Positions 9,092-53,750 of a stretch of 64,000 nucleotides of DNA are shown one piece after another (position 1 is the first letter of the stretch; each line of letters begins with the position of its first letter). The stretch is from an uncultured Gammaproteobacteria bacterium (GTDB taxonomy: Bacteria; Patescibacteriota; Microgenomatia; Daviesbacterales; UBA10151), in the NCBI GenBank assembly GCA_964422835.1, contig CAYRCR010000001.1, forward strand, positions 212,517-276,516. The letters run 5' to 3'. Both the position numbers and the translations under genes were made by a program. The notes under the pieces are model-generated. The model saw nothing but the letters and a program-made list of their open reading frames with translations, did no database searches and had not been told where the DNA came from.

Positions 9092-10331
9092 TTTTACCTC
9101 CTGCTATGGCACGGTTCCGGAAAGCCAGCCGATCTTCATATTTTTTTGTCAAACGATCATGTTCGATTTGAAGTTGCTCATTTGTTAAATAACATGTCCG
9201 GGTCATTTTATTACCATATTCATCAACAGCCGACCAATCAATATCCCTATGTTTTTTTTCATCATAAAAACATGTTCCCGGATATGGTGCCAGAATAGTA
9301 AACCCCACTATGTCGGGATCAATTTCATCAATTAACTGCTCAGTTAATTTTATATCATCAATATCCTCATTGGGCATTCCCAATAAGATATAGGCCCGGC
9401 GAAACAACCCAATATCTTTTGCCAATTCAAATGTAATTCTTATCTGATCAGGAGTAATTCCTTTTTTCATATCTGCCAGTATTTTTGGAGAGCCGCTTTC
9501 CACCCCTGCCCAAACCTCGCGGCAGCCGGCTTTATGCATGGCGCGAAGCATTTCCTCATCTGCTGTATCCACCCTGATATTGCATCCCCACTCGGTTTTA
9601 ATATCCCTTTTGAGTTTTTCTTCGCAAAACTGCAGGACCAACTTTTTCCTCAAAGTAAAAGTATCATCGCTAAATTTCATAAAATCAATCTGCCAATCAT
9701 TTACCACCTGTTCAAACTCATCAACAATATTTTTTGCACTGCGGAATCTGACATGCCTTGTCCAAATTACATTACTGGCGCAAAATACACACCTAAAAGG
9801 ACAGCCGCGGCTGCTAAAAATTGCCGCAATTCTTTTTTGATTATCTCTTTCTGCCTCCGCAATATTGCGTTCCTGCCTCACAATTCTCCTATCAGGAAAA
9901 GAAAGACTGTCTAAATCCTCGATATATGGCTGTTGTACTTTTAGTTCATGATTTCCCCGGACAATATCCAAAAATGCGTGTTCCCCTTCACCTATCACCA
10001 CTGCATCCACACACTTATTTTCCAGTGTTTCATCAGGTAAGGCCGAAGGGTGTACACCTCCAAATACAATATGATTATTAGGTCCTTTAATCTTTTCAGC
10101 TAAAAATAAACCATGCCTCATCTGGGGAGAAGTGCACGAAAATCCTACAATATCTGCCCCCTTACAACCCTCGATGATTTCCTTATCACTGTCAAAAAAA
10201 CCGCTGTAGAAAGAAATATTCTCATATCCTGCTACCCTTAAATTAGCCGCAAGATAGCCCATATTTAAAGCTTCCCAGGTGTGAAAGGATCTGGGTTGAA
10301 CCAGTGCAATCTCAGGTTTTCGTTCCGCCAT
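9078..10331 (-). CDS. B12-binding-domain radical SAM protein
   Basis: CPFRCVFCAS radical-SAM cluster motif after an N-terminal cobalamin-binding-like domain. Confidence 0.7.
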   Translation of the reverse strand: MAERKPEIALVQPRSFHTWEALNMGYLAANLRVAGYENISFYSGFFDSDKEIIEGCKGADIVGFSCTSPQMRHGLFLAEKIKGPNNHIVFGGVHPSALPDETLENKCVDAVVIGEGEHAFLDIVRGNHELKVQQPYIEDLDSLSFPDRRIVRQERNIAEAERDNQKRIAAIFSSRGCPFRCVFCASNVIWTRHVRFRSAKNIVDEFEQVVNDWQIDFMKFSDDTFTLRKKLVLQFCEEKLKRDIKTEWGCNIRVDTADEEMLRAMHKAGCREVWAGVESGSPKILADMKKGITPDQIRITFELAKDIGLFRRAYILLGMPNEDIDDIKLTEQLIDEIDPDIVGFTILAPYPGTCFYDEKKHRDIDWSAVDEYGNKMTRTCYLTNEQLQIEHDRLTKKYEDRLAFRNRAIAGGKNGGD

Positions 10332-11298
10332 TATTTATAAATTCTTCGGCAGTAATTTTAGAATTCTCCTTTAGAATCTTTTGTATTTTATCATAAGTTA
10401 AAAGGCCTGCTTGAGCACCTATCTTTTCTACTACCGAAGCCCCGTTGGCTGCCCCCCAGCGCATGGCTTCAGCAAGATCTTTGCCATGGAAAAAGGCTGC
10501 CAGAACTCCTGTGGCATATGCGTCCCCTGCCCCGGTCATATCCACCACTTTTGCCGGAAAAGCCTCCAATTTATAATATTTTTCCCCACTAAATCCATAA
10601 GAACCATTTTTCCCGTCAGTAATAATTACCATCTTCGACCCCAAGTCCAACAAACCGCATAACATTTTTTTCATATTTATCCCGCCTACAACCTGTTCCG
10701 CCTCTTCTTTGTTTAAAATCAAAAGTTTAGTCAGGGAGAGAAGCCTGGCAAATTTTTTAATGCCGAAGTTTAGCTCATAGGTTCCGGGATTATAAATTAA
10801 AGAAGCTCCTGTTCTTTCCAGATAATTTTCAACCTGCCCGTTTAAATTGCACTCTATAGCAGATTTTCCCATAGATGAAACATAAATCCACTTGGCGCGG
10901 TCAAGATCCGGCAACTGGTATTTAAAATCCTGATGGTAAGTTAAAATTGTCCGTTCCCCTTTAAAGGAAATAAGGGCTGAAACATTGGAATCCTGCCCCT
11001 CACAAACTTTTACATAACGGGTATCCACCCCCTCCTCTTTTAATTTAGACAGAGTGAATTTTCCCATCTCATCAGTACCGATATTCAGATAAACTGCCGA
11101 GCGCATGCCAAGCCTTGCTGCTCCCACAGCATTATTGGGGTTATTGCCCCCCAAAACCTGCATGTATTTATCAACAGGTAATTTATCCCCAAAACGGAGA
11201 CATAACTCCTTTTGCCCTTTTTCTATTTCAATCTCCGCATCATGGATCTGAAAAAATAAATCTACCGCCGCATCACCAATGGAAATTAAATCAAACAT
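10312..11298 (-). CDS. PfkB-family carbohydrate kinase
   Basis: DTTGAGDAYATG (PfkB GAGD motif) and an N-terminal GG region. Confidence 0.75.
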   Translation of the reverse strand: MFDLISIGDAAVDLFFQIHDAEIEIEKGQKELCLRFGDKLPVDKYMQVLGGNNPNNAVGAARLGMRSAVYLNIGTDEMGKFTLSKLKEEGVDTRYVKVCEGQDSNVSALISFKGERTILTYHQDFKYQLPDLDRAKWIYVSSMGKSAIECNLNGQVENYLERTGASLIYNPGTYELNFGIKKFARLLSLTKLLILNKEEAEQVVGGINMKKMLCGLLDLGSKMVIITDGKNGSYGFSGEKYYKLEAFPAKVVDMTGAGDAYATGVLAAFFHGKDLAEAMRWGAANGASVVEKIGAQAGLLTYDKIQKILKENSKITAEEFINNGGTKT

Positions 11299-11307
11299 AC
11301 TTCCAGT

Positions 11308-11520
11308 TTACAACACAGCAGGAGTAAACCCAAGTTCTTTAATTTTATCCAGAATCTGTTCCAATTCTATTTTTTCTTTATCGTATTCCACTTCTGTTTC
11401 TTGTTTTGCATAAGAAGTATTGGCAGATTTGACACCTTCCAAGTCTTCTAAATCCATATCAATGGAGAGGGCACAAGAGGTACAATGCATACCTTCAATT
11501 TTTAATTTAATCTTTTTCAT
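11308..11520 (-). CDS. copZ: copper chaperone CopZ (HMA domain)
   Basis: GMHCTSC metal-binding motif in a 70-aa protein. Confidence 0.8.
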   Translation of the reverse strand: MKKIKLKIEGMHCTSCALSIDMDLEDLEGVKSANTSYAKQETEVEYDKEKIELEQILDKIKELGFTPAVL

Positions 11521-11527
11521 AATATCC

Positions 11528-11625
11528 TTGTCATTCTGAGCGTAGCGAAAAATCTCTCAGCCCGTCTGAGAAACTCGCATACGCGAGAGATCCTTCTCCC
11601 TCGACTTTACTCGGGATCAGGATGA
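11528..11625. repeat. structured intergenic repeat element (GAGCGTAGCGAA...CTCGACT family)
   Basis: Terminal inverted ends gtcattctga/tcaggatgac. Internal hairpins tctcag..ctgaga and ctcgcatacgcgag. Shares the 13-mer tgagcgtagcgaa and ctcgact with the element at 20697-20760. Confidence 0.4.
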
Positions 11626-11629
11626 CATT

Positions 11630-12667
11630 TTATATCACCTCAATTGTTCCGTAATACATGCCCATGGAGCAGGTCCAATAAGTCTTACCCGCCTTTGTTG
11701 GGGTAAATTCTACTACTTCCGAAGTTTTTTGCAATAAATTTTTCCTTATATTAAAAGAAGGAATAACAAAAGCGGAAGTACAACCATAACCGCCTGTCGG
11801 AATCAAATTTAAACGGACAGGAATATTGGCCTGCACCTTAATGGAATTGGGGCTATAGCCATTGGGGAAAACCTTGATGTCAGTTACCTGCACTCCGTCC
11901 ACAATTTTAATATTTGAATCAACGGTTTTTATTTCCTCTCCCCCAACCCTTACCTCAAAAGGCAAAGCATCAACTATGGTTTGGGAAGTTATCGGCGCGT
12001 TTAAAACAATCAGGGCGGAATTTATTGATGATAGCCCGAGGTATATAACCAAAACGGCTGCCAGCCTTAAGAACTTTGTTTTGAAAGCATCTCCCAAAAC
12101 TGTGGTAATAAAACCGACTGCAAAAAAAAGCGGGGCAGTACCCAAAACGAACGCCCCCATGATAGCCGCGCCCAAAAAAGGGTTGCCTGAAGAGATTGCC
12201 AAGGCTTCCATGGCAATAGTGGTCCCGCAGGGAATTAAAATCGTCAAAACCCCGACTGTGGCCGGAGCAAAAAGGTCCTGGCTTTTAGCTCTACTGTGCA
12301 CAAGTTTTGCCAAAAACTTGGGTGGCTGGATTATGACATACCTGAAAATCGGGTGAACATTTAAAAGATTAAAGGCCACCAGTAGCATATATATTCCGGC
12401 AAATAGCTGCATGACAACTCTTGCAGTTTCTGAAATTTGTAAGGCTTGGCCAAATAACCCCAGGGCAAATCCTAAAATAACATAAACAATAAGCTTGGCC
12501 AATATAAAAGCAAGCGTTGGGAAAATGTTATGTTTCCTGCGGCCTCCTGCTTCTAAATCCGCCTCTTCCCGTGAAGTTATGACAGAAGCCAAAAGTCCGC
12601 CCTGTACAGCCAGGCATCCAATACCACCCACAGTAAGTCCGGTCAGGAAAATTATCCAAAGATCCAT
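11630..12667 (-). CDS. polytopic membrane protein fused to a C-terminal cupredoxin-like domain
   Basis: About 8 TM helices. C-terminal YGCTS...TYWTCSMGMYYGTIEV resembles the cupredoxin-like domain of the neighbouring 117-aa protein. Confidence 0.5.
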   Translation of the reverse strand: MDLWIIFLTGLTVGGIGCLAVQGGLLASVITSREEADLEAGGRRKHNIFPTLAFILAKLIVYVILGFALGLFGQALQISETARVVMQLFAGIYMLLVAFNLLNVHPIFRYVIIQPPKFLAKLVHSRAKSQDLFAPATVGVLTILIPCGTTIAMEALAISSGNPFLGAAIMGAFVLGTAPLFFAVGFITTVLGDAFKTKFLRLAAVLVIYLGLSSINSALIVLNAPITSQTIVDALPFEVRVGGEEIKTVDSNIKIVDGVQVTDIKVFPNGYSPNSIKVQANIPVRLNLIPTGGYGCTSAFVIPSFNIRKNLLQKTSEVVEFTPTKAGKTYWTCSMGMYYGTIEVI

Positions 12668-12674
12668 CTTTTAA

Positions 12675-14945
12675 TTAAAGCTTAATCCTCTTTAAAAGTA
12701 AAGAATTGGTGACTACTGAAACCGAAGAAAGAGCCATGGCACCTGATGCCAAAATTGGGTTTAGCAGAATATGGAAAAATGGAAATAAGGCACCCATGGC
12801 AACCGGAATGAGTATTGTATTATATCCAAAAGCCCAAAACAAATTTAATCTGATTGTCCTCATGGTTTTACGCGAAAGTTCAATTGCCCCTGCCACTGAA
12901 TTTAGGTCTTTGCTTACCATGGTGATATCTGCCGCCTCAATTGCCACATCAGTTCCCGTGCCCATGGCAATCCCCACATCGGCAGAAGCCAAGGCCGGGG
13001 CATCATTTATGCCATCCCCTACCATAGCCACAATTTTGCCTTCGGCCTGAATTTTTTTTACTTCTGCCTCTTTACCGCTGGGCAAAACCTCTGCCAGAAC
13101 TCTTTTAATCCCGACCTGCTTGGCAATAGCCTTGGCTGTCCGGGCATTATCTCCGGTAATCATCACGGCCTCAATGCCCATCTTTTGCAAGCGCGCAACA
13201 CCAGCTTTGGCACTGGGTTTGACAGTATCTGCCACGGCAATCAGCCCTAAAAATTTCCCACCAGAGGCAAGTACCATTACAGTTTTTCCTTCATTTTCCA
13301 GCTTTTCCAAATTGGACTTAACCTTACTTATATCTATTTTTTCTTTTTCCATTAATCTAACATTACCCAAGACCACTTTTACTTTGCCGATTAAACCTTC
13401 CACACCATATCCTGAAATGGCCTTGAATTTATCAACTTTTTGCAGGGTAAGTTTATCCTCATCCGCTTTTTGAACAATAGCTTCAGCCAGTGAGTGCTCC
13501 GATCCTTTTTCCAAGGATGCAGCCATTTGCAAAACCTTCTTATCGCCAACAATGTCGGTCACCCTGGGTTTACCTTCAGTCAAAGTTCCGGTTTTGTCAA
13601 AAATTATGGTATTTATTTTATGGGCCAGCTCTAAACTTTCAGCATCTTTTATTAAAATCCCGTTTTCCGCACCTTTCCCCACTCCCACCACAATGGCAGT
13701 AGGAGTGGCCAACCCCATGGCACAAGGGCAGGCGATAATTAACACTGCTACAGTATTTAACATGGCCAAAAGGAAGGCTGGCATCGGCCCAAAGTTATAC
13801 CAGACAACAAAAGTCAAAATTGCCAAAATTAAAACAACAGGTACAAAATAGGAGGAGATCACGTCAACCAGTTTTTGAATCGGGGCCTTGCTGGATTGCG
13901 CCTCGGACACTAGTTTAATAATCTGGGCCAGCATTGTATCAGACCCAACTTTAGTGGCTTTATAGGTAAAAGTGCCGGATTTGTTGATTGTTGCCCCGAT
14001 TACCGTATCGCCTTTCCGCTTTTCTACGGGGATACTTTCTCCGGAAATCATTGATTCATCAATTGACGATTCTCCTTCCAAAATTTGTCCGTCCACCGGG
14101 ATCTTTTCGCCGGGCCTGACCCTGATAATATTTCCCACTACCACCTGTTCAATTGGGATATCCACTTCTTTACCATTCTTGACAATCCTGGCAGTTTTGG
14201 CCTGCATGCCAATTAATTTCTTAATAGCCTCACTCGTTCCCAGTTTAGCTTTTGCCTCAAAATACCGCCCCAATAAAATAAGGCCAATCACCACGGCCGA
14301 AACATCAAAATACGGCATCGGGTCAATACCCGTTTCCATTAAAAACTGCGGGAAAACTATTGCAAATACCGAGTAGGCAAAAGCAGCTGTTGTGCCAATG
14401 GCAATCAAAGTATCCATGTTGGCCAGGCGGTGGCGGAAAGCCGGGATTGCCCCTTTATAAAAACCCAGTCCTGCCCAAAATTGCACAGGGATGGCCAAAA
14501 TCATCTGAAAGTAGAAATTGCGAAGGATAGAGGGGGCAAAATCGGCCAAAACTGGAAATGTCCCCCAAACAATCAAAGCCCCCAAAAACAAACTCATCAT
14601 AACTTTTCTTTTTAGGGCTGCCAGTTCTTTTTGTTTTTGTTGTTTTTCTTTATCTTCAGATTGCAGTTTTTCTTTTACAGCCATTTTGTATCCGACATTG
14701 GCAATTTTGGAAATCAGTTCTTCTTCGGAAACCGCGGACTCATCAAAAGTTACATTGGCGCTTTCATCTATCAGGCTGACTGTAGACTTTTCTACCCCGG
14801 GAGTTTTTTTCAAAGTATCCTCAATAACTTTGACGCAAGAGGCACAGTGCATACCGGAGATAGTAAAACTTTGCTTCGTTAATTGACCAGTTCGTTCGTC
14901 GTTCATTGTACTATGATCTTTCCATGGTACATACCCATACCACAA
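12675..14945 (-). CDS. copA: copper-translocating P-type ATPase CopA (true start probably MNDER near 14906)
   Basis: HMA motif GMHCASC, CPC motif (CPCAMGL), DKTGTLT phosphorylation site, and [10 protein letters not shown]. Confidence 0.9.
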
Positions 14946-15256
14946 CTGTATCCATATTCCCCGCTCTTTTGCGGAGTAATTTCAACGGTTACTTTTTGAT
15001 TTAGAGGTAACTCTTTTTTAATTTTAAAGTCAGAAAGTACTACTTCGGATAAACACTCTGTCGGATCAGTCCTGGTAAAATTAATTCTGGTTGTTTTACC
15101 TTTAGGCACAGAGATTACTTCCGGCTGGTATCCTCCGTCCACAATAATATCTACAGAACCCACAACCTTCACTTCTTTTTCTTTTCTCATCAGAAAAAAC
15201 CAGAAAGTAAAAATAATCCCAATCACGCCGGCTATGGTAACTAAAATTTTATCCAT
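14903..15256 (-). CDS. membrane-anchored cupredoxin-like domain protein
   Basis: N-terminal TM. C-terminal [16 protein letters not shown], with Cys/Met/His spacing like type-1 copper cupredoxin-like domains found next to copA genes. Confidence 0.5.
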
Positions 15257-15259
15257 TAT

Positions 15260-15529
15260 TTAACCCTTTTTGGCCCATTTGTTATACAAAGAAATGGTGC
15301 CATAAATTGTTATCCAAGTGAGCCCCACAGCTGTTATAAAACCAAAGACCAGCGAACCTAAATCCGGAGCTGAAGTTGACTTAAGTCCTTCAAGGTTCAT
15401 GGAATGTGTCCAAGACTGGGTAACGCTGAACAATAAGTCCGGCGCAATATATGAAAGTGTTGCACAAGCTGCAACCCAAATGGCCATAATTGCCGCAGCA
15501 GCGTTAGCAAAAGCTTTTGCATTTAACAT
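15260..15529 (-). CDS. small hypothetical membrane protein
   Basis: 89 aa, three hydrophobic helices. Confidence 0.35.
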   Translation of the reverse strand: MLNAKAFANAAAAIMAIWVAACATLSYIAPDLLFSVTQSWTHSMNLEGLKSTSAPDLGSLVFGFITAVGLTWITIYGTISLYNKWAKKG

Positions 15530-15546
15530 CTTTTCTCACCCCCCTA

Positions 15547-15684
15547 TTACTTCTTTTGTATTTGTTTCCAAAGCCAAACACCCAAAAGAATGGCATCAAT
15601 TAAAATCACCAGTCCAAATAATCCTCCCAAAATATTAAATCCTCCGCCCCCTCCCCAATTCATCATATTTGTATATCCCCACAT
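15547..15684 (-). CDS. unannotated 45-aa Gly-rich hydrophobic peptide (MWGYTNMMNWGGGGGFNILGGLFGLVILIDAILLGVWLWKQIQKK)
   Basis: An ORF under 60 aa, absent from the ORF track. It fills the gap between two minus-strand copper-island genes. Confidence 0.25.
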   Translation of the reverse strand: MWGYTNMMNWGGGGGFNILGGLFGLVILIDAILLGVWLWKQIQKK

Positions 15685-15698
15685 TTTTTCATCACCTC

Positions 15699-16589
15699 CT
15701 ATGTTTTTCTGGAAATCCAATACAAGAAATAAATCACTGCCAGTAAAAATATGCCGTTTACTACAATATTACCCCCCAATAGGGAATTTATAAAGCCTCC
15801 CACATTCTCAATGGTTTTGGTGGCACCGGACATCCCTTCCATAGACAATCTTCCATTGACAGTCAAGATTAAAGTTAAAGAGCCGGTTATAAAAAAGATG
15901 GCTGCGGCAATTAAGTTATTTAAAATCAAAGGATAAGTTTTACCGAAGATTTTTATTTCCCCCAAAGGCCGCCTAAGAACCGTAAATTTGGGCATTTTGC
16001 CGGACAAAAAAGCAGAAATTATAAGCAAGGGTGTGACCATACCCAAAACATACATCCCGCCCAAAATTATTGCCCCGAAAAAAGAAGGAGTCAAAAAGGT
16101 CAGAGCCATGATACCGATTAAAACCGGAGCACAGCAAGCCGAGGTTATTCCTGAAAAAATTCCCATGGTAAAAATTGACAAGACATCAGTCTTCACACCC
16201 GGTTGGCTCCTTGAAAAATGCGGCATAGGCATTTTAAGCCCCAAAAGCGAAACCCCGGCAATTAAAAGCATAAATACTCCTGATATAAGATAAATCTCAT
16301 TATGGTAACGGAATAAAGACTTTGAGATAAAGGCTACCCCCAGGACTGCCGGAAGAAGCACTACAAAAATCCCCAAACCAAAAACCAGAGTCATGAGTAA
16401 TACCTTTTCTTTTTCCTTAAAAACGCTACCTAAGTATGCCGGAAGTAAAAAGGTGATGCAGCAAGGCGCGAAAAGCGCCACCATCCCCGCTACAAATGCC
16501 GCAATAAGTGATGTTTGAAAGAGAATGGTTTCCATCCTATGCTCCGCATCCTTTGCCTCCGGAAAGGCTGGGCCAGGCAATTGGTCCAA
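15699..16589 (-). CDS. CcdA/DsbD-like transmembrane thiol-disulfide transfer protein
   Basis: Polytopic. Cys pairs in TM helices (FAPCCITFLLP, ACCAPVLIG), as in CcdA/DsbD-family proteins. Confidence 0.45.
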   Translation of the reverse strand: MDQLPGPAFPEAKDAEHRMETILFQTSLIAAFVAGMVALFAPCCITFLLPAYLGSVFKEKEKVLLMTLVFGLGIFVVLLPAVLGVAFISKSLFRYHNEIYLISGVFMLLIAGVSLLGLKMPMPHFSRSQPGVKTDVLSIFTMGIFSGITSACCAPVLIGIMALTFLTPSFFGAIILGGMYVLGMVTPLLIISAFLSGKMPKFTVLRRPLGEIKIFGKTYPLILNNLIAAAIFFITGSLTLILTVNGRLSMEGMSGATKTIENVGGFINSLLGGNIVVNGIFLLAVIYFLYWISRKT

Positions 16590-17511
16590 CCTGCCTTTTT
16601 ATGGCCTGATAGCCCTGGGCAGAAGAAAATGTCTTGGATAAAATCTCGGCAGGGGAAACAGTTTTAAAATCACGGTTATTTTTAGCAAAATGGTAAGAAA
16701 TATCAAGATAAGTCTGCGGGAACCAGTAGGAATTAAAGGCCAGAACAGTTCTGTAAATCTCATCTTTAGAAAAGTTTTGCGATACCATCAGCTCAACCAG
16801 CGCTAAAGCCGCCATGCCATGATTGCAGTCAGGAAAAGCCACAGAATTTCCACAACAAGGCCTGAAAATCCCCCCGGCAATTTCCTCAACTTGTTTTTGC
16901 TGATCAGGCGTAAGTTTAATATAGGAAAACTTGCTATAAAGGTCCATTGGTTTTGAAACCCCGATTGTATAACCTCCGGTTGAAGCAAAATTGGCAGTTT
17001 GCCCGCCTTCCACCATCGGCCCCTTATCCAAAATGTCATTTTTATTAGAGAGCCCCAAACCCCATAAGACATCCACCCAGAATTGGGCATTGCCGGTATT
17101 TAGCTCAATTTGATCTTTAACAGAACCGTCAAGATATTTTTTGTATTCCGGAGGCAAGGCATCAGTCCCGGTTAAAGCTTTGGCCAGTTTTACCTCGTCA
17201 ATTACCCCATCGGAAATCAACTTCTTACCCAAATCTCCCCAGTTTAATTTAAAAGTAAAGCCTTTCGATGGCAAAACTTTTTCCTGTAAAACGCTTAAGT
17301 CCGGAGCTTGTTCTTTTGGGGCTTCTATTTTTTTAGCCTGGATTTTAAAGATTGGTTGGGAGATATTGCCTATCAAAAAAGAGGCTAGTATTATTCCTAA
17401 AATTAGAAATAAAGGCAATTTAAACTTTTTTTTCACATTATTTAATAACATTGCCTGAAAAAGAAAATTCCACATACGGCTTGTCCGGATCATTGGTTTC
17501 AAAACTGACAA
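16537..17511 (-). CDS. hypothetical exported Cys-rich protein (copper island)
   Basis: N-terminal TM/signal. C-terminal FRPCCGNSVAFPDCNHG cysteine/histidine cluster. Family not recognised. Confidence 0.35.
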   Translation of the reverse strand: MSVLKPMIRTSRMWNFLFQAMLLNNVKKKFKLPLFLILGIILASFLIGNISQPIFKIQAKKIEAPKEQAPDLSVLQEKVLPSKGFTFKLNWGDLGKKLISDGVIDEVKLAKALTGTDALPPEYKKYLDGSVKDQIELNTGNAQFWVDVLWGLGLSNKNDILDKGPMVEGGQTANFASTGGYTIGVSKPMDLYSKFSYIKLTPDQQKQVEEIAGGIFRPCCGNSVAFPDCNHGMAALALVELMVSQNFSKDEIYRTVLAFNSYWFPQTYLDISYHFAKNNRDFKTVSPAEILSKTFSSAQGYQAIKRQVGPIAWPSLSGGKGCGA

Positions 17512-18025
17512 TCCGGGAAATCGGGCCTACCCCTTGCGGGCCATGATAGGTTGGGTCAAAACTGGATACAACCTGGCCTTCTTCCCCCGGATTTAAGGTA
17601 CCTGTCCAGTCAGAAGGCGGGGACATACCTTTCATACCAAACTTAGGACCTTCTCCTTTTGGAGTTTTTAAAAATACTTTACTACAGGCACAAGAGCTAA
17701 CCATGTTGGCAATTTGCAATGGCTTATCACCAATATTTTTCACTTTAAACTCATGTATGGCATCTCCTCCGGAATATGGGATGTCTTTAAAGTCAAAACT
17801 TGTTTCTGTTGTTTCTATTTTGGCTCCGGCTGTTTTTTCAAGGGAAGCTTTGGATGAAGATTTACCCAAAAAGAAAATAGCCCCCGCTAGAATAGCAACT
17901 GTAAATAAAATAACTGCAATGATGATTTTTTTGTCGCTCATTTTATTATTGGCTCTTTTTAAAAACCTGCATAATTTCTGAAACTGCCTCCCCGCCTTTG
18001 CCATGCTTGACAGCATCAGCGGCAC
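17438..18025 (-). CDS. DUF1573-domain protein, membrane-anchored (true start likely MSDKK near 17941)
   Basis: Beta-sandwich-like region with SSCACS, as in the CxC signature of DUF1573. Confidence 0.5.
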   Translation of the reverse strand: MPLMLSSMAKAGRQFQKLCRFLKRANNKMSDKKIIIAVILFTVAILAGAIFFLGKSSSKASLEKTAGAKIETTETSFDFKDIPYSGGDAIHEFKVKNIGDKPLQIANMVSSCACSKVFLKTPKGEGPKFGMKGMSPPSDWTGTLNPGEEGQVVSSFDPTYHGPQGVGPISRIVSFETNDPDKPYVEFSFSGNVIK

Positions 18026-18215
18026 AGGTTTTTAAGTGGTTTTCCAGCATAACCAGATCTGCTTCCCGCAAAGCTCTTTGCACGGCTTGGGATTGATGAA
18101 TAATGTCAATGCAATATACCTGGCTTTCAACCATTTTAATAATCTTTTTCAAATGCCCTGCAGCAATTTGAAATCTGTGTAATATTCTCTCCTGTGTATC
18201 TTTAGGTCTATACAT
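17946..18215 (-). CDS. csoR: CsoR/RcnR-family metal-sensing transcriptional repressor
   Basis: 89 aa. Cys-His-Cys ligand pattern (YCIDIIHQ ... HLKTCA) and family-typical helix arrangement. First gene of the copper island. Confidence 0.75.
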   Translation of the reverse strand: MYRPKDTQERILHRFQIAAGHLKKIIKMVESQVYCIDIIHQSQAVQRALREADLVMLENHLKTCAADAVKHGKGGEAVSEIMQVFKKSQ

Positions 18216-18220
18216 GAAGT

Positions 18221-18233
18221 CCCCCTATGGGGG
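18221..18233. promoter_or_regulatory. GC-rich inverted repeat CCCCC-N3-GGGGG upstream of csoR (candidate CsoR operator, overlaps SD)
   Basis: ccccctatggggg lies 6 nt upstream of the csoR ATG. CsoR operators are typically G/C-tract inverted repeats. Confidence 0.3.
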
Positions 18234-18275
18234 ATATAGTAAGATATTCTAAAAGCGATGTCAAGGGCCGCTATT

Positions 18276-19710: not shown

Positions 19711-20694
19711 TTATTTCATCCTCAAAACAGAAGTTATAGCTTTAATAATTTCCTCTTTTGTCAAACCGTATTTTTGTAAAAGCTCTTCCGGGGTGCCTGA
19801 TTGGCCGAATTTGTCATCAACTCCAATGATTTTTATGGGTACCGGAAAGTTTTGGGAAACATATTCCGCCACGGCGGATCCCATACCTCCCATCTTTTGA
19901 TGATCCTCAACTGTCACTATGGCTCCAGTCTCTTCTGCCGCAGATTGGATAACTTTTGTATCCATTGGTTTGATGGTGGGTAAATTTATTACCCGAACAC
20001 TAATTTTACTCTCTTCCAATTCCTTCGCAGCCAAAAGCGCATAATAGACCATCTCTCCCGTAGCAATGATAGTCGCGCTATTGCCTTCATGCATAATTTC
20101 CGCCTTTCCTATTTCAAAAGGGGAATCTTCTGTAGTAATAATGGGGCATTCACACCTGGGTAACCTTAAATAACAAGGCTTATCAAGTTCCATTATGGCC
20201 AATGTGGCTTTTTTGGCCTCAATGGCATCACAAGGAGAGAGGACCACCATGTTAGGCAATACCCTCATCAAGGCAATATCTTCCAAAGCCTGATGGGTTG
20301 CTCCATCCGGACCAACTGTTAAACCTGCATGCGAGCCAATAATTTTTACAGGCATGTCATTTAAACAAATTGTGGTTCTTATTTGTTCCCAATTCCTGCC
20401 CGGTGAAAACATGGCATAAGAGGTGGCAACCGGAATTTTGCCTGCTGCCGCAAGCCCCGAGGCCACAGTCACCAGATTTTGTTCTGCCACACCCACCTGA
20501 ATAAACCTACCCGGAAATTTTTCCTCAAAACCTTCCACTTTAGTAGATCTGGCCAAATCTGCAGTTACAACAATTATCCTGTCATTTTTCTCCGCAGCCA
20601 AAATCAAGCTTTCACCAAACCCATCACGGGGAGATTTCCGTTTTATATCATTATCAAATAATTTAGGATTTAGAAAAGTATTAGTGTTTGTCAT
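19711..20694 (-). CDS. tktB: transketolase, C-terminal (pyrimidine-binding) subunit
   Basis: 327 aa, split-transketolase subunit B. Confidence 0.85.
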   Translation of the reverse strand: MTNTNTFLNPKLFDNDIKRKSPRDGFGESLILAAEKNDRIIVVTADLARSTKVEGFEEKFPGRFIQVGVAEQNLVTVASGLAAAGKIPVATSYAMFSPGRNWEQIRTTICLNDMPVKIIGSHAGLTVGPDGATHQALEDIALMRVLPNMVVLSPCDAIEAKKATLAIMELDKPCYLRLPRCECPIITTEDSPFEIGKAEIMHEGNSATIIATGEMVYYALLAAKELEESKISVRVINLPTIKPMDTKVIQSAAEETGAIVTVEDHQKMGGMGSAVAEYVSQNFPVPIKIIGVDDKFGQSGTPEELLQKYGLTKEEIIKAITSVLRMK

Positions 20695-24548: not shown

Positions 24549-24623
24549 TTGGCTGCGGGACTAGGAGTCGAACCTAGATAGACAAGTTCAGAGCCTGTCG
24601 TCCTACCATTAGACGATCCCGCA
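24549..24623 (-). tRNA. tRNA-Gln (anticodon CTG)
   Basis: Manual cloverleaf fold: acceptor TGCGGGA/TCCCGCA (U1:A72, as in bacterial tRNA-Gln), anticodon loop CTCTGAA, T-arm CTAGG-TTCGACT-CCTAG, 3' GCCA. Confidence 0.85.
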
Positions 24624-24762: not shown

Positions 24763-25473
24763 TTATTGCGTCTCTAAAATATCTTTTACTTCCAGGAACC
24801 CATCTTTGTTTTTAAAACATTTCGGGACAATGTTATATCTATTCAAATCAAGGAGCAAGGGTAAATCATCCTTTATTTCCGACTGATCAGAAGCATATTT
24901 CATCAGTTCTTTTGTCAAAGCTTGTCTGCTATCCTCCCAATCAACAGGCAATCCGGATAATTTCTTCTCAATCATTTCCCCGCAAATTTTATCCTCCAAA
25001 ACCTCCTGCCCTCTGTCTCCTGCCATAACTATCAAGACATCTTTTTGGGATTGAGCCAGAAAATTTACCAATGCCCCAAAGTTATTGAAAGCCCCGGCCA
25101 AAACCAATCTATCTGTATGCCCGCACATTTTTTCAAAAACCCGCGAGCCGTTAATGCTCATCCAAAGAATATCTTTTCCTCCTGCCTCAATTTTATTAAT
25201 ACTGCTGATATGGTTACTGGCAGAAAACCTTTCAGGATCCATAGACAAACTTTCTCCGGCCAGGAGAGCATCCGGGTATTGCATTAAAGCCCGGGATAGA
25301 TTTTGTTCATTAACTACCAGTAGTCTGGCAGGATTTTTGGAAAGGAAAAGCGGCATATTGGATGAAGCCGCGTTGGCATCAACCATCACAGTAGTTCCAT
25401 TAAATTCAAAATCAGATGGCAGCTCGTAAAACCATACCTTTTCTATATGCACAGGGTAGATTATACCATCCAA
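24763..25473 (-). CDS. ComB-like (2-phosphosulfolactate phosphatase family) protein
   Basis: 236 aa. Weak resemblance to the PF04029 N-terminal region. Assignment tentative. Confidence 0.35.
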   Translation of the reverse strand: MDGIIYPVHIEKVWFYELPSDFEFNGTTVMVDANAASSNMPLFLSKNPARLLVVNEQNLSRALMQYPDALLAGESLSMDPERFSASNHISSINKIEAGGKDILWMSINGSRVFEKMCGHTDRLVLAGAFNNFGALVNFLAQSQKDVLIVMAGDRGQEVLEDKICGEMIEKKLSGLPVDWEDSRQALTKELMKYASDQSEIKDDLPLLLDLNRYNIVPKCFKNKDGFLEVKDILETQ

Positions 25474-48659: not shown

Positions 48660-49177
48660 TACTTAATTACTCCTTTTAAAATTTGCCCTGAATAGATAAC
48701 TTTAGAGCGGGCAGATAAAAGTTCTCCCTCAAACAATGAAATTAAATTCAATGCATCGTTTTTAATATTTCCCTCCCCATTTAAAATAAAAATATAAATT
48801 TTGGCTGCCTGATAGGCTATGGCCTCGTGGGCATAAGTTATCTGATATCTGGCTTTTTCAATTCCCACCTTGTTATTTCCATTGGAACGAAGTTCATATT
48901 CATCCAGAATCCTAGCTTGGTTAATCATAATTTGGTCCAATTCATCGGCTCGTCTCTTATTAATTTCGGCAATTTTATCGGAAAGAATTTTTAATTTTTG
49001 TTTATGGTCAAAGGAATAATTTTTGACTGTTTTTTCATAGGCTTCCCTTTTGGAATTGACAATATCCTCCGGTGTCACCCTGGCAAAAACCTGCCCTGGC
49101 CATATCATTGCCAATAAAATTAGTAGCATCAATATCACACATCGGATGTGTGATATTGCTAATCTTTTCTTAAACAT
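48659..49177 (-). CDS. hypothetical membrane-anchored protein
   Basis: 172 aa. Its N-terminal codons contain one copy of the palindromic repeat. Confidence 0.35.
   Translation of the reverse strand: MFKKRLAISHIRCVILMLLILLAMIWPGQVFARVTPEDIVNSKREAYEKTVKNYSFDHKQKLKILSDKIAEINKRRADELDQIMINQARILDEYELRSNGNNKVGIEKARYQITYAHEAIAYQAAKIYIFILNGEGNIKNDALNLISLFEGELLSARSKVIYSGQILKGVIK
49134..49157. repeat. palindromic repeat ATCACACATCGGATGTGTGATATT (copy 1)
   Basis: Near-identical copy at 50162-50185. The two copies bracket the frameshifted gene. Confidence 0.6.
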
Positions 49178-49920: not shown

Positions 49921-50161
49921 TTTTCTCCCCTTAGATCTTCCTCTCCTGATATCATTTACCCAATTCTTATGCGGGGGGTAAATAAGGCCTTTCCTGCCAA
50001 ACTATCCATAAATGGCGAAACTAGCTCGCCCTTGCTACCAACTGGAACTCCAACAATCTCCTCTATTCTGCGTCTGATTATTTCACTCATGAAGGTATTA
50101 TAGCCCGAAAAAGGCAAATTATCAACTATAGGCTCGTTTAACTTCCTGTTTCAGTGGATAT

Positions 50162-50185
50162 ATCACACACCCGATGTGTGATATT
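50162..50185. repeat. palindromic repeat ATCACACACCCGATGTGTGATATT (copy 2)
   Basis: See copy 1. Confidence 0.6.
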
Positions 50186-51391: not shown

Positions 51392-51426
51392 TTGTAAACT
51401 TTGTCGAAACAGTGCAAAGCTAACTT

Positions 51427-51500
51427 TTAATTCTCTTCACGAGCCCTATATGTTAAAGCTTCTGCTATATGTTCCGATAAAATGTTTTCCTGATCTGCCA
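51427..51500 (-). repeat. orphan duplicate of the comM/yifB 3' end (encodes ...ADQENILSEHIAEALTYRAREEN*)
   Basis: 59 bp identical to 52245-52303, plus 5 further codons with synonymous changes and their own stop. A direct-repeat partner of the intact gene end, like an att-site pair. Confidence 0.7.
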
Positions 51501-52186: not shown

Positions 52187-52229
52187 TTATAATTATATCA
52201 AATTTGATATATAAAACAATACCCCAATT

Positions 52230-53750
52230 TCAATTTTCCTCCCTAGCCCTATATGTTAAAGCTTCTGCTATATGTTCCGATAAAATGTTTTCCTGATCTG
52301 CCAGGTCTGCAATAGTTCTGGAAAGTTTGAGGACCCTGTGATAACCGCGGGCCGAGAGGTTCATTTGGGATATGGCCATTTTTAAAAGATCCATGGCATC
52401 TTGGGTGATCTGGCAAAACTGCTTAATCTGGGCGCTTTTCATTTCTGAATTGGTTAAAATTCCCGAGCCTTGAAATCTTTTATATTGTAACTCCCTAGCT
52501 TTTTTAACCCTTTCACGGACAGTTTTTGAGTCCTCCGGCACTTTTTCCCCGGTTAATTTTTCCACATCCACATATGGCACATCCAAATGAATGTCAATCC
52601 TGTCAAGAAGCGGCCCTGACATCCTTTTTTTATAGCGGGAAATTTGCCCGGGCATGCAGACACAATTTTTATTAGGGCTCCCCAAAAACCCGCAGGGACA
52701 GGGGTTGTGGGCTGCCAAAAGAATAAACTGCGATGGAAAAGTTAAAGATCCGGAAGCGCGTGATATGGTCACTTTGCGGTCTTCCAGAGGCTGGCGCAGT
52801 GCCTCCAGCACTTGTCTGGGAAATTCTGGCAGTTCGTCCATAAAAAGTACACCGCGGTGGGCCATGGACACTTCCCCTGGTTTAATATTATTTCCTCCGC
52901 CAATCATCCCCACATAAGAAGCGGTGTGGTGGGGGCTGCGGAAAGGCCGGGTCGTGACAATTGCCTCACCCGGAGAAAGCGAACCGCAAATGGAATAAAT
53001 TCTGGTTACTTCCAAAGCTTCTTCTTTGGTAAGAGGTGGCAATATGGAAGGGAAGGCCCGGGCCAGCAAGGTTTTTCCAGCTCCTGGCGGGCCTTTTAAA
53101 ATAACATTATGGGCACCAGTTGCTGCAATCTCAAGAGCTCTTTTGGCCATTTCCTGCCCTTTAATATCGCGAAAGTCATATTCATAAAGATTTCCATCGG
53201 ATGAGTTAAATTCCGTCAAGGGTTGCGGTAAAACCTCTTCTGCCCCTGTTAAAAATTTAAAAATTTGTAAAATATCCTCAAAAGGATAAATGTCAATTCC
53301 ATCAACCACTGCCGCTTCCGGGGCGTTTACTTTTGGTACAAATAATCTTTTCAAACCTATTTCTTTTGCTAGTATCGCAAAAGATAAAATTCCATGAGTT
53401 GAACGCAAACTCCCGTCCAAGGACAACTCCCCCACAGCCAAGGTATTTGATAAATCAGAGACCAGTTGACCCGATGCCAGTAAGATTCCCAGGGCAATCG
53501 GCAAATCAAAGGCCGGTCCTTCTTTTGGTAAATCTGCCGGGGCTAAATTAACCGTAATTTTTTTGGGAGGGAGGTCTGCCTCGGAATTCCGAAGGGCCGA
53601 GCGGACCCTTTCTTTTGATTCCTCAACTGCCCTATCTGCCAAACCCACCAGGGTAAATGAAGGCAAGCCCTGCGAGGCAATGTCCACTTCTACCGTGACA
53701 GGAACAGATTCAAGCCCAACATTTGCTCCGGATATTACTTTGGCTAACAT
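52230..53750 (-). CDS. comM: YifB/ComM-family Mg-chelatase-like AAA+ ATPase (start at MLAKVIS)
   Basis: Lon-like N-terminal domain. Walker A GPPGAGKT. Cys cluster NPCPCG...C. Confidence 0.8.
   Translation of the reverse strand: MLAKVISGANVGLESVPVTVEVDIASQGLPSFTLVGLADRAVEESKERVRSALRNSEADLPPKKITVNLAPADLPKEGPAFDLPIALGILLASGQLVSDLSNTLAVGELSLDGSLRSTHGILSFAILAKEIGLKRLFVPKVNAPEAAVVDGIDIYPFEDILQIFKFLTGAEEVLPQPLTEFNSSDGNLYEYDFRDIKGQEMAKRALEIAATGAHNVILKGPPGAGKTLLARAFPSILPPLTKEEALEVTRIYSICGSLSPGEAIVTTRPFRSPHHTASYVGMIGGGNNIKPGEVSMAHRGVLFMDELPEFPRQVLEALRQPLEDRKVTISRASGSLTFPSQFILLAAHNPCPCGFLGSPNKNCVCMPGQISRYKKRMSGPLLDRIDIHLDVPYVDVEKLTGEKVPEDSKTVRERVKKARELQYKRFQGSGILTNSEMKSAQIKQFCQITQDAMDLLKMAISQMNLSARGYHRVLKLSRTIADLADQENILSEHIAEALTYRAREEN

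Follow-up and report, generated by a model that had tools for sequence, protein, structure and literature searches.

A ten-gene CsoR-associated cluster of Patescibacteria as a candidate system for copper defence on both faces of the membrane

Patescibacteria are ultra-small groundwater bacteria with genomes of about 1 Mb and little regulation. A 64,000-nucleotide stretch of the contig CAYRCR010000001.1 (assembly GCA_964422835.1; hereafter the window) carries a head-to-tail run of ten open reading frames (ORFs) on its minus strand (11308-18264, including a promoter-like site), in which the genes for the copper sensor CsoR, the exporting ATPase CopA and the chaperone CopZ stand together with seven others, and the question raised by this locus is what these seven contribute beside a copper sensor and a copper pump. 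A first-pass annotation, made from the sequence alone, had read the cluster as an extracytoplasmic copper redox and handling module. Based on the results described below, it appears—with a confidence just above even—that the ten genes form a single CsoR-controlled operon for copper defence on both faces of the membrane, combining an efflux arm with a CcdA-fed extracytoplasmic arm of thiol and thioether ligands.

Retention of the gene set across Patescibacteria

Following the direction of transcription, the ten genes encode CsoR, a DUF1573 protein, a protein with a CCGNS...DCNHG motif (P3), a polytopic protein with CC motifs (P4), a 45-residue peptide (pep45), a DUF5676 protein, a CupA-like protein of the Cupredoxin_1 family, CopA, a DsbD_2 domain fused to a second Cupredoxin_1 domain, and CopZ. 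This order, as given in the first-pass annotation, was recovered by ORF calls and family searches, as were the 45-residue peptide and the inverted repeat at the start of csoR, and the searches with hidden Markov models (HMMs) that it had proposed for PF13473, DUF1573 and DsbD_2 all returned matches (Table 1). The co-directionality of the cluster, which it had also pointed to, holds for all ten ORFs, but carries no evidential weight because 40 of the 50 window ORFs of at least 180 amino acids lie on the minus strand.

The evidence for a functional unit comes from the relatives of P3. A search of a 5.8-billion-protein collection yielded more than 5,585 homologues, every one of them named hypothetical; clustering at 50% identity gives 488 representatives of the family. 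Among genomes sampled once per species at least 593 stretches contain a P3 relative, and the record titles, where informative, refer to Microgenomates and Parcubacteria lineages. For the best 80 P3 loci the ORFs were called and the ten window proteins were searched by single-sequence phmmer (E ≤ 1e-4), the resulting counts being lower bounds. The gene found near P3 most often was copA, at 61 of the 80 loci and at 37 of the 40 that have at least 6 kb on either side, followed by those for DUF1573 (59 of the 80, 31 of the 40), P4 (52 and 30), CsoR (49 and 29), DUF5676 (25 and 17), DsbD_2 (25 and 15), the CupA-like protein (20 and 15) and CopZ (15 and 13).

The exact ten-gene order of the window was found in three other species-level genomes, and versions with eight or nine genes in six more. 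Other lineages exhibit a shuffled order, such as csoR-cupA-copA-DUF1573-P4-P3-DUF5676 or csoR-copA-DUF1573-P3-DsbD_2-CupA-like, and many relatives have DUF1573-P3-P4 behind csoR, with copA located kilobases off. The position directly after csoR, scored for 49 csoR genes, is taken by DUF1573 in 19 cases, by copA in nine and by the cupA-like gene in seven. Since the gene set has been retained through this shuffling, the neighbourhoods provide good evidence for a functional linkage. Moreover, the species-level genomes that keep P3 usually have it linked to the copper sensor, the pump, DUF1573 and the CcdA-like gene, so that Patescibacteria seem to be under strong selection by copper stress acting at their surface.

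The first-pass annotation had called the cluster an operon type not previously described, and, indeed, no description of a gene set of the csoR-DUF1573-P3-P4 type was found in the literature searched (DUF1573, DUF5676, CopA/CsoR of Patescibacteria, DsbD_2/PF13473 and YcnL); a paper on the adaptation of the candidate phyla radiation to oxic conditions does not mention copper. It should be noted that near-identical copies of the cluster are present in many metagenome-assembled genomes titled "uncultured Gammaproteobacteria/Pseudomonadales bacterium" (e.g. L007, L017 and L038; binchicken assemblies), and one 6.5-kb contig is titled Rikenellaceae; such titles conflict with the gene content and look unreliable, or the contigs look misbinned.

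Components of the cluster

Concerning the sensor, the csoR product contains the x-C-H-C pattern of Cu(I) ligands, Cys35-His60-Cys64, together with Tyr34, as read from its sequence; in 51 homologues Tyr34, Cys35 and His60 are conserved to at least 95% and Cys64 to 60-80%. The spacing of the three ligands is the same as that of C36/H61/C65 in the CsoR from Mycobacterium tuberculosis. Of 51 related loci, 38 keep the operator-like palindrome TCCCCCATAGGGGGA ahead of csoR, in the form of ATATCCCC-N2-4-GGGGGATAT or ATACCCC-N2-4-GGGGTAT, and TTGACA boxes occur at the equivalent place in many related loci. A pattern search found TCCCCCATAGGGGGA as the sole perfect copy in the window, and the looser pattern CCCC-N5-GGGG once against 1.7 expected, i.e. 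not above chance; the palindrome is therefore meaningful for its position and its conservation 5' of csoR and not for its rarity. An inverted-repeat tool run on the csoR leader reported nothing, the palindrome having been read directly and then confirmed by the pattern search. The number of sigma-70-like sites in the whole region does not exceed that in shuffled sequences (22 vs 16.1). By strong homology, CsoR is predicted to be the Cu(I)-sensing repressor of the cluster, leaving the DNA upon binding Cu(I). The right arm of the palindrome, GGGGGA (18220-18225), is the only Shine-Dalgarno-like sequence ahead of csoR; if it doubles as the ribosome-binding site, bound CsoR would cover both promoter-proximal DNA and the sequence encoding its own ribosome-binding site.

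The two domains termed cupredoxins in the first-pass annotation are related to CupA from Streptococcus pneumoniae (4F2E/2MRY), the 117-residue protein aligning over 84 residues with E=8.7e-22 and the domain at the C-terminus of the DsbD_2 fusion with E=1.5e-7. The former has the site Cys68...Cys105-G-Met107-G-Met109, conserved to at least 95% in 20 homologues, and the latter reads Cys...Cys-S-Met-G-Met without any His, the CxMxM being present in every full-length copy; nearly all of about 45 locus copies have the CupA-type motif, one of them reading CGMNI. It is by the set Cys...CxMxM that the binuclear Cu(I) site of CupA has been defined in the literature (PMC5552934, PMC7558416). A type-1 (blue) copper site was considered and rejected: the soluble domains hold one His in the 117-residue protein and none in the fusion (residues 225-345), so a His-Cys-His-Met site is impossible. 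Judged from their sequences, both are CupA-type Cu(I) chaperone domains and not blue copper redox centres. The first-pass annotation had made its proposal depend on a complete copper-ligand set in these domains and on co-conservation of the genes elsewhere; the domains lack the type-1 set but have the CupA-type one in full, and the co-conservation is strong, so that the core idea survives with a changed mechanism.

As to their location, the free-standing CupA-like protein, tethered to the membrane by a single N-terminal helix, reads MDK-helix-RKEKEVK, a charge pattern shared by its homologues, which predicts an N-out/C-in orientation; based on these flanking charges, it most likely faces the cytoplasm and serves CopA, as does CupA from S. 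pneumoniae. Where its gene and copA are both present (20 loci), the two are nearly always neighbours. The CopA sequence has, in translation, the P1B-1 signatures CPC(x)6P, YN(x)4P, M(x)2SS (MALSS) and DKTGT, plus GMHCASC, and its N-terminal metal-binding domain is a single HMA domain (PF00403, 57 bits). In reviews, CupA is limited to a few streptococci, and chaperone and pump form matched cupredoxin-cupredoxin or ferredoxin-ferredoxin pairs (PMC7558416, PMC5646241); the CopA of the window is without a cupredoxin-like N-terminal domain matching CupA. CupA-type chaperones are thus not confined to streptococci and can pair with an HMA-type CopA, which is a modest widening of the known range. In two related loci (L003 and L004) the group csoR-DUF1573-P3-P4 is situated apart from copA (distance from P3 about +5.7 kb in the former and +3.5 kb in the latter), the ATPase having an HMBD (PF19335) N-terminal domain in place of HMA, and genes for a DsbA-like protein, a Crp-family regulator and a ZIP transporter are found just upstream of csoR.

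The DsbD_2 domain of the fusion protein spans the membrane six times, with a single conserved Cys in both the first (GGIGC) and the fourth (IPCG) transmembrane helix. Its core has 12 Lys and Arg residues in loops 1, 3 and 5 versus one in loops 2 and 4, from which both termini of the core are expected outside and with them the fused CupA-like domain. In Parcubacteria (seven loci) the module is split into a protein consisting of HMA, an extra transmembrane helix and DsbD_2—the fused N-terminal HMA replacing copZ—and, encoded apart from it, a CupA-like protein whose signal anchor is N-in. These split forms support the topology independently, since the extra helix lets a cytoplasmic HMA reach an N-out DsbD_2 and the CupA-like partner is exported. 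It is the outer CupA-like domain that is fused in Microgenomates, the HMA being encoded by a separate copZ directly after the fusion gene (nine of the nine loci with window-type order). The split and fused arrangements, taken together, indicate a single three-part module of HMA/CopZ, DsbD_2 and an external CupA-like domain, and both the charge distribution and these fissions and fusions predict the fused CupA-like domain to be extracytoplasmic. CupA reduces Cu(II) via its two cysteines, the reductant that resets it being unknown (PMC5646241); the fusion of a CupA-like domain to a DsbD-type protein suggests one answer, as far as the external copy is concerned, to what re-reduces the CupA cysteines.

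P4, taken as a single sequence, has no match in Pfam or NCBIfam and gave only noise in a sequence search of the PDB, so that a profile was needed. The profile of 25 homologues aligns with CcdA from Thermus thermophilus (5VKV) with E=6.7e-7 and with both catalytic cysteines in register; PF02683 is matched by seven of the 25 homologues (best E=1.1e-7), and some homologues bear the name CcdA at the NCBI. About seven transmembrane helices are predicted from hydropathy and charge, with APCC in the first and CCAP in the fourth; Cys25 and Cys134 are those aligned to the CcdA cysteines, each paired with an extra invariant Cys, and 50 of 53 locus copies have the two CC motifs together. The CcdA-like thiol transporter of the first-pass annotation is thereby upheld: the alignments identify P4 as a true CcdA relative with vicinal Cys pairs, and, by analogy, it is predicted to transfer electrons to an outer partner.

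The P3 sequence has no relative in Pfam, NCBIfam or the PDB, and a 25-sequence profile gave nothing usable in the PDB either. The AlphaFold2 model based on 113 sequences (predicted local distance difference test score, pLDDT, 91; predicted template-modelling score 0.83) comprises an N-terminal anchor, an N-domain at residues ~50-180, a three-helix bundle at ~181-260 resembling CcmH, and a C-terminal Cys. The bundle contains the motif R-P-C199-C200-x-N...F-P-D-C209-N-H211-G-M213, and the terminal Cys302-Gly-Ala is invariant and flexible; RPCCxN...FPDCNHGMA and the C-terminal Cys-Gly-Ala, with four invariant Cys altogether, are found in all of the 81 locus copies. CcmH is the only clear structural neighbour: 2KW0 ranks at the top in Foldseek with a template-modelling score of 0.62 on the target and E=1.7, which is not significant alone, and residues ~50-180 have no structural match in the PDB. 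The comparison of profiles by hhalign gave a probability of 1.8% and aligned residues 181-238 to residues 8-66 of CcmH, pairing PCCGN with PKCQN, DCNHGMAA with DSNAPIAA and SKDEI with SDGEI; the Cys motif of P3 falls at the active-site loop of CcmH, although only the second Cys of CcmH aligns. Since there is no match to PF03918, the hhalign probability is this low and RPCC stands in place of the LRCxxC of CcmH, which is not kept, P3 has not been filed in the CcmH family, the likeness being one of fold. It is concluded from the model that P3 has a bundle resembling that of CcmH, with cysteines located where CcmH has its active-site loop. The window cluster and the loci inspected are devoid of Ccm, Ccs and haem genes. 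The Lys-rich N-terminus followed by one hydrophobic helix predicts that the domains of P3 lie outside.

Distant long homologues of P3 (P0272, P0261 and P0248) possess an N-terminal polytopic membrane domain with an intrahelix CPxCG or, in one form, an N-terminal rhodanese domain; one long form has a BNR domain, and the hints from these domain fusions are weak. The membrane and rhodanese domains of the long forms are possible alternative partners to P4.

The DUF1573 protein combines an N-terminal membrane anchor with an Ig-like (ASH/PapD-like) sandwich modelled with a pLDDT of 93.8, its nearest structure being that of a Porphyromonas gingivalis protein of unknown function. Ser83, Cys84, Cys86, Met103, Trp112 and His133 are invariant in 118 sequences, and the CxC occupies the position of UGC (selenocysteine) in selenoprotein relatives; as in P3, a Lys-rich N-terminus and a single hydrophobic helix predict the domain to be outside. 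In two related loci (L068 and L070) P3 is accompanied by a tandem of two or three additional DUF1573 paralogues of greater length (190-272 amino acids), suggesting that this component is expanded in some lineages.

For the peptide pep45, the N-terminus, rich in Met, Gly and Trp, is predicted to lie outside and the KQIQKK tail inside. Its ATG is preceded, at a distance of 8 nt, by the strong ribosome-binding site AGGAGGTGA, and an HMM of the family (MMGxWGYGxMMxW...DLxLLGxWLWKQIQKK) finds it in about 17-20 related loci, where it mostly comes right behind P4. The first-pass annotation had taken it for unannotated; this needs correcting, as GenBank lists it as the hypothetical protein KKS13138.1 (Candidatus Daviesbacteria GW2011_GWB1_41_5). 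A 44-nt similarity between its gene and positions 25092-25135 was dismissed as chance; it falls inside an unrelated 236-residue ORF. The DUF5676 protein consists of two helices joined by a loop that holds a conserved His (His41, at least 95%), and no mention of this family was found in the literature searched.

Proposed mechanism, alternatives and related systems

The favoured mechanism has four steps. In the first one, inferred from the motifs, Cu(I) would bind to Cys35, His60 and Cys64 of CsoR, which would leave the palindrome—it overlaps the promoter as well as the ribosome-binding site of csoR—and allow the ten genes to be transcribed; in the second, the CupA-type chaperone at the cytoplasmic face, possibly together with CopZ, would pass Cu(I) to CopA for export. 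Both steps, i.e. sensing and efflux, are backed by strong sequence homology. The third step concerns four membrane-anchored products that would offer soft Cys, Met and His ligands outside: the DUF1573 protein with its CxC, Met and His, P3 with CC...C-x-H and the flexible C-terminal Cys, the N-terminus of pep45, and the fused CupA-like domain. They may take up Cu(I) or Cu(II) at the cell surface, and exported thiols may be protected or repaired by them; the placement of the parts is predicted from charge-based topology and from the fissions and fusions described above. The outer thiols would be oxidised outside the cell, and in the fourth step two proteins of the CcdA type could keep these thiols reduced with cytoplasmic electrons, P4 acting on the DUF1573 protein and P3, and DsbD_2 on its own CupA-like domain with CopZ/HMA as the cytoplasmic partner. 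This electron flow is proposed by analogy with the route from CcdA/DsbD to CcmG and CcmH and with the copper-induced Scs system, in which a DsbD-like protein is combined with Cu(I)-binding periplasmic thiol proteins (PMC10907172). CcmH lies downstream of CcdA/DsbD in cytochrome c maturation, which fits a redox link between P3 and P4. The extracytoplasmic redox and handling module of the first-pass annotation thus stands as a copper unit with several products predicted at the outer face, but its cupredoxins are not redox centres and the free-standing CupA-like copy is most likely cytoplasmic.

Several points weigh against this mechanism. The basis for the accessory components is computational and the host is uncultivated; the topology is a prediction from charge counts, and the likeness of P3 to CcmH stays at the level of fold. 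A Pfam scan detected no thioredoxin-fold domain among the ten products, and the cytoplasmic HMA/CopZ partner of DsbD_2 fits a metal transporter rather than an electron transporter. The cells of Patescibacteria have no outer membrane, and the reason for holding copper at the surface of such a cell is not obvious; DUF5676 and pep45 have no assigned role. Finally, the invariant vicinal CC pairs of P4 are superfluous for the electron transfer of CcdA and look more like the metal-relay cysteines of MerT. Such pairs are typical of MerT, MerC and MerF, and the likeness to the Mer system as a whole—vicinal cysteines in transmembrane helices, HMA partners and a flexible C-terminal Cys tail—suggests metal hand-over by the exchange of thiol ligands.

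In the main alternative, held here to be a minor possibility, P4 (APCC/CCAP) and DsbD_2 move Cu(I) and not electrons, in parallel with CopA: starting from cytoplasmic CopZ/HMA, the metal would travel by way of the cysteines within the membrane and reach the CupA-like domain outside, P3 and DUF1573, or it would take the reverse direction, following the logic of MerP-MerT-MerA. It would account for the CC pairs lying in both pseudo-repeats of P4 in nearly all copies, for the HMA fused at the cytoplasmic end of DsbD_2 in Parcubacteria and the copZ that follows the fusion gene in Microgenomates of the window type, and for Cu(I)-type ligands on every partner at the outer face; the flexible C-terminal Cys of P3 recalls the C-terminal cysteines of MerA. 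Yet P4 is homologous to an electron transporter, and not to MerT, and keeps both catalytic cysteines; the sole structural relative of P3 is an oxidoreductase, a MerA-like reductase is absent from the cluster, energy coupling is not apparent, and the operon already contains an ATP-driven Cu(I) exporter. If it were true, the CcdA scaffold serving as an ATP-independent copper conduit would constitute a new class of copper translocation, widespread in Patescibacteria and, via the HMA-DsbD_2 proteins, in Firmicutes.

The remaining explanations are less likely, in view of the adjacency of csoR and DUF1573, the ancestral lack of electron transport chains and the copper signatures of sensor and pump. 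That the accessory genes are mere neighbours of csoR-cupA-copA-copZ, engaged in general thiol-redox housekeeping of the envelope (for instance isomerising or reducing the disulfides of pili and surface proteins), is improbable: CcdA-like and CcmH-like folds are generic redox parts, DsbA-like genes are close by in some loci, and small genomes often pack unrelated genes into one unit—as with pfkB behind copZ—but DUF1573 directly follows csoR more often than copA or the cupA-like gene does, the linkage to copA persists in 37 of 40 loci despite the shuffled order, and the invariant sets of Cys, Met and His are typical of Cu(I) sites. A role in maturation instead of defence, i.e. a CcdA/CcmH-type pathway preparing an exported copper or haem protein or delivering copper to one, deserves very little credence. 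The fold match of P3 and the CcdA match of P4 do recall components of cytochrome c maturation, but no haem-handling or obvious cuproenzyme genes are found in the cluster, the LRCxxC of CcmH is missing in P3, Patescibacteria are ancestrally without electron transport chains (PMC7507113), and control by a sensor of copper excess and the linkage to an exporter argue for detoxification. The stress sensed might also be another thiophilic one, for instance that of Ag(I), of Hg(II) or, as with CstR, of persulfide, handled by the outer-face proteins: non-copper sensors are known within the CsoR family (PMC8643695), CopZ and the HMA domain of CopA score against mercury-related HMA models as well, and binding by soft ligands extends from Cu to Ag and Hg. 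This, too, is very hard to credit beside the x-C-H-C ligands and Tyr34 of CsoR, which are of the Cu(I) type, the P1B-1 Cu(I) signatures of the ATPase, and the fact that CupA is a copper chaperone.

Compared with the systems described so far, the cluster shares with csoR-copZ-copA of Bacillus subtilis and the cso locus of M. tuberculosis a C-H-C CsoR, a palindromic operator with G/C tracts at the promoter, a P1B-1 CopA with HMA and an HMA-type CopZ, and differs from them by the seven further genes between csoR and copZ. As in copY-cupA-copA of S. pneumoniae, CupA is encoded immediately 5' of copA; the regulator, however, is CsoR instead of CopY, CopA has a ferredoxin-like HMA instead of a cupredoxin-like domain, CopZ is also present, and there is a second CupA-like domain, which is joined to DsbD_2 and whose predicted orientation is outward. 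The Scs system (ScsB-ScsC-ScsD in Salmonella, Proteus and Caulobacter) is induced by copper and has a DsbD-family protein feeding Cu(I)-binding extracytoplasmic thiol proteins (PMC10907172), and the window cluster is proposed to work alike; the likeness is functional only, since the cluster is predicted to be regulated by CsoR, has no thioredoxin-fold proteins—the partners being the Ig-like DUF1573 protein and the CcmH-like P3—and its P4 is of the short CcdA type with vicinal Cys pairs and without the periplasmic domains of ScsB. With CcdA/DsbD-CcmG-CcmH it has in common a CcdA-family gene adjoining that of a protein with a CcmH-like bundle and Cys at the position of the active-site loop, but it is without haem machinery and CcmG, has RPCC...DCNH for LRCxxC, an extra N-domain of ~130 residues and a C-terminal Cys in P3, and is predicted to be under copper control. 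The HMA-DsbD_2(-DUF2318) proteins (COG2836) of the CsoR regulon in Firmicutes also join DsbD_2 to a cytoplasmic HMA under predicted CsoR control (PMC4938975), whereas in the window the outer domain is CupA-like instead of DUF2318 and the HMA is either separate (copZ, in Microgenomates) or fused (in Parcubacteria).

The known parts are thus csoR-copA-copZ, the CupA-type chaperone and the pairing of HMA with DsbD_2, the last previously described in silico only; new, as far as the literature was searched, are the csoR-DUF1573-P3-P4 module, the P3 family, the CcdA subfamily with two CC motifs, the Met-rich micro-peptide and the outward-facing CupA-like domain. The cluster provides a testable context for the P3 family, DUF1573, DUF5676 and the Met-rich micro-peptide, as well as for the HMA-DsbD_2 proteins of Firmicutes.

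Transcription unit and other features of the window

The coordinates of the cluster are collected in Table 1. Protein look-ups matched the window to Candidatus Daviesbacteria GW2011_GWB1_41_5 (KKS13134-13142), and RIFOXYD1_FULL_41_10 has identical or near-identical counterparts of the window proteins.

Table 1 Features of the ten-gene cluster in the 64-kb window, in the direction of transcription
Feature	Position	Strand	Basis or remark
Promoter-like site TTGACA-17-TACTAT	18236-18264	-	best sigma-70-like score of the region, 10/12 matches
CsoR operator-like palindrome TCCCCCATAGGGGGA	18220-18234	.	between -10 box and csoR ATG, 4 nt before the ATG
csoR, 89 aa	17946-18215	-	PF02583, 74.8 bits (cut-off 22.8)
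DUF1573 protein, 167 aa	17438-17941	-	PF07610, 43.5 bits (cut-off 26.1)
P3 (CCGNS...DCNHG protein), 312 aa	16537-17475	-	no match in Pfam/NCBIfam; alternative start at 17451 gives 304 aa
P4, 278 aa, polytopic, CC motifs	15699-16535	-	single sequence without family match
pep45, 45 aa, single-pass	15547-15684	-	no family match
DUF5676 protein, 89 aa, two transmembrane helices	15260-15529	-	PF18926, 48.9 bits
CupA-like (Cupredoxin_1) protein, 117 aa	14903-15256	-	PF13473, 84 bits
copA, P1B-1 Cu(I)-exporting ATPase	12675-14906	-	TIGR01511, 634 bits; HMA, E1-E2 ATPase and Hydrolase domains
DsbD_2 + Cupredoxin_1 fusion	11630-12667	-	PF13386, 109.8 bits; PF13473, 37.3 bits
Structured spacer, 109 nt	11521-11629	-	folding energy vs shuffles
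copZ, HMA Cu(I) chaperone, 70 aa, GMHCTSC	11308-11520	-	PF00403, 56 bits; CopZ models

Neighbouring genes of the cluster overlap or are separated by at most 17 nt, save for the spacer ahead of copZ; the stop of the cupA-like gene and the ATG of copA share the overlap ATGA. Terminator-like sites within the cluster occur at the rate expected by chance (10 found vs 10.1 expected), and an Rfam scan gave no match anywhere in the cluster, the spacer included. The latter, present as a single copy in the window, has a minimum free energy of -41.8 kcal/mol (z=-3.9 vs shuffles) and exhibits a hairpin followed by a U-run at its end, whereas the gap between the fusion gene and copZ is much shorter in the relatives inspected (L001, L007 and L017), amounting to 8 nt in L001. 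The spacer may be a transcription attenuator, a transcript stabiliser or an inserted element.

Beyond copZ, pfkB (10312-11298) begins 9 nt past the stop codon, with no terminator between them; given this short gap, it is possibly co-transcribed with the cluster. A transketolase gene (19711-20694) is located beyond the csoR end, and the related Microgenomates genome L001 has the same flanks, with transketolase upstream and PfkB and G6PD downstream. The only Rfam match in the window is a tRNA gene on the minus strand (24553-24623, 59.5 bits). Farther away, the 26-bp palindrome ATATCACACATCGGATGTGTGATAT occurs twice (49131-49156 and 50160-50185), about 1 kb apart and 92-96% identical; the two copies bracket several small ORFs (53-94 amino acids) and resemble paired operator sites. 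A direct repeat of 76 nt (51425-51500 and 52228-52303; 93% identical) has its copies 803 nt apart.

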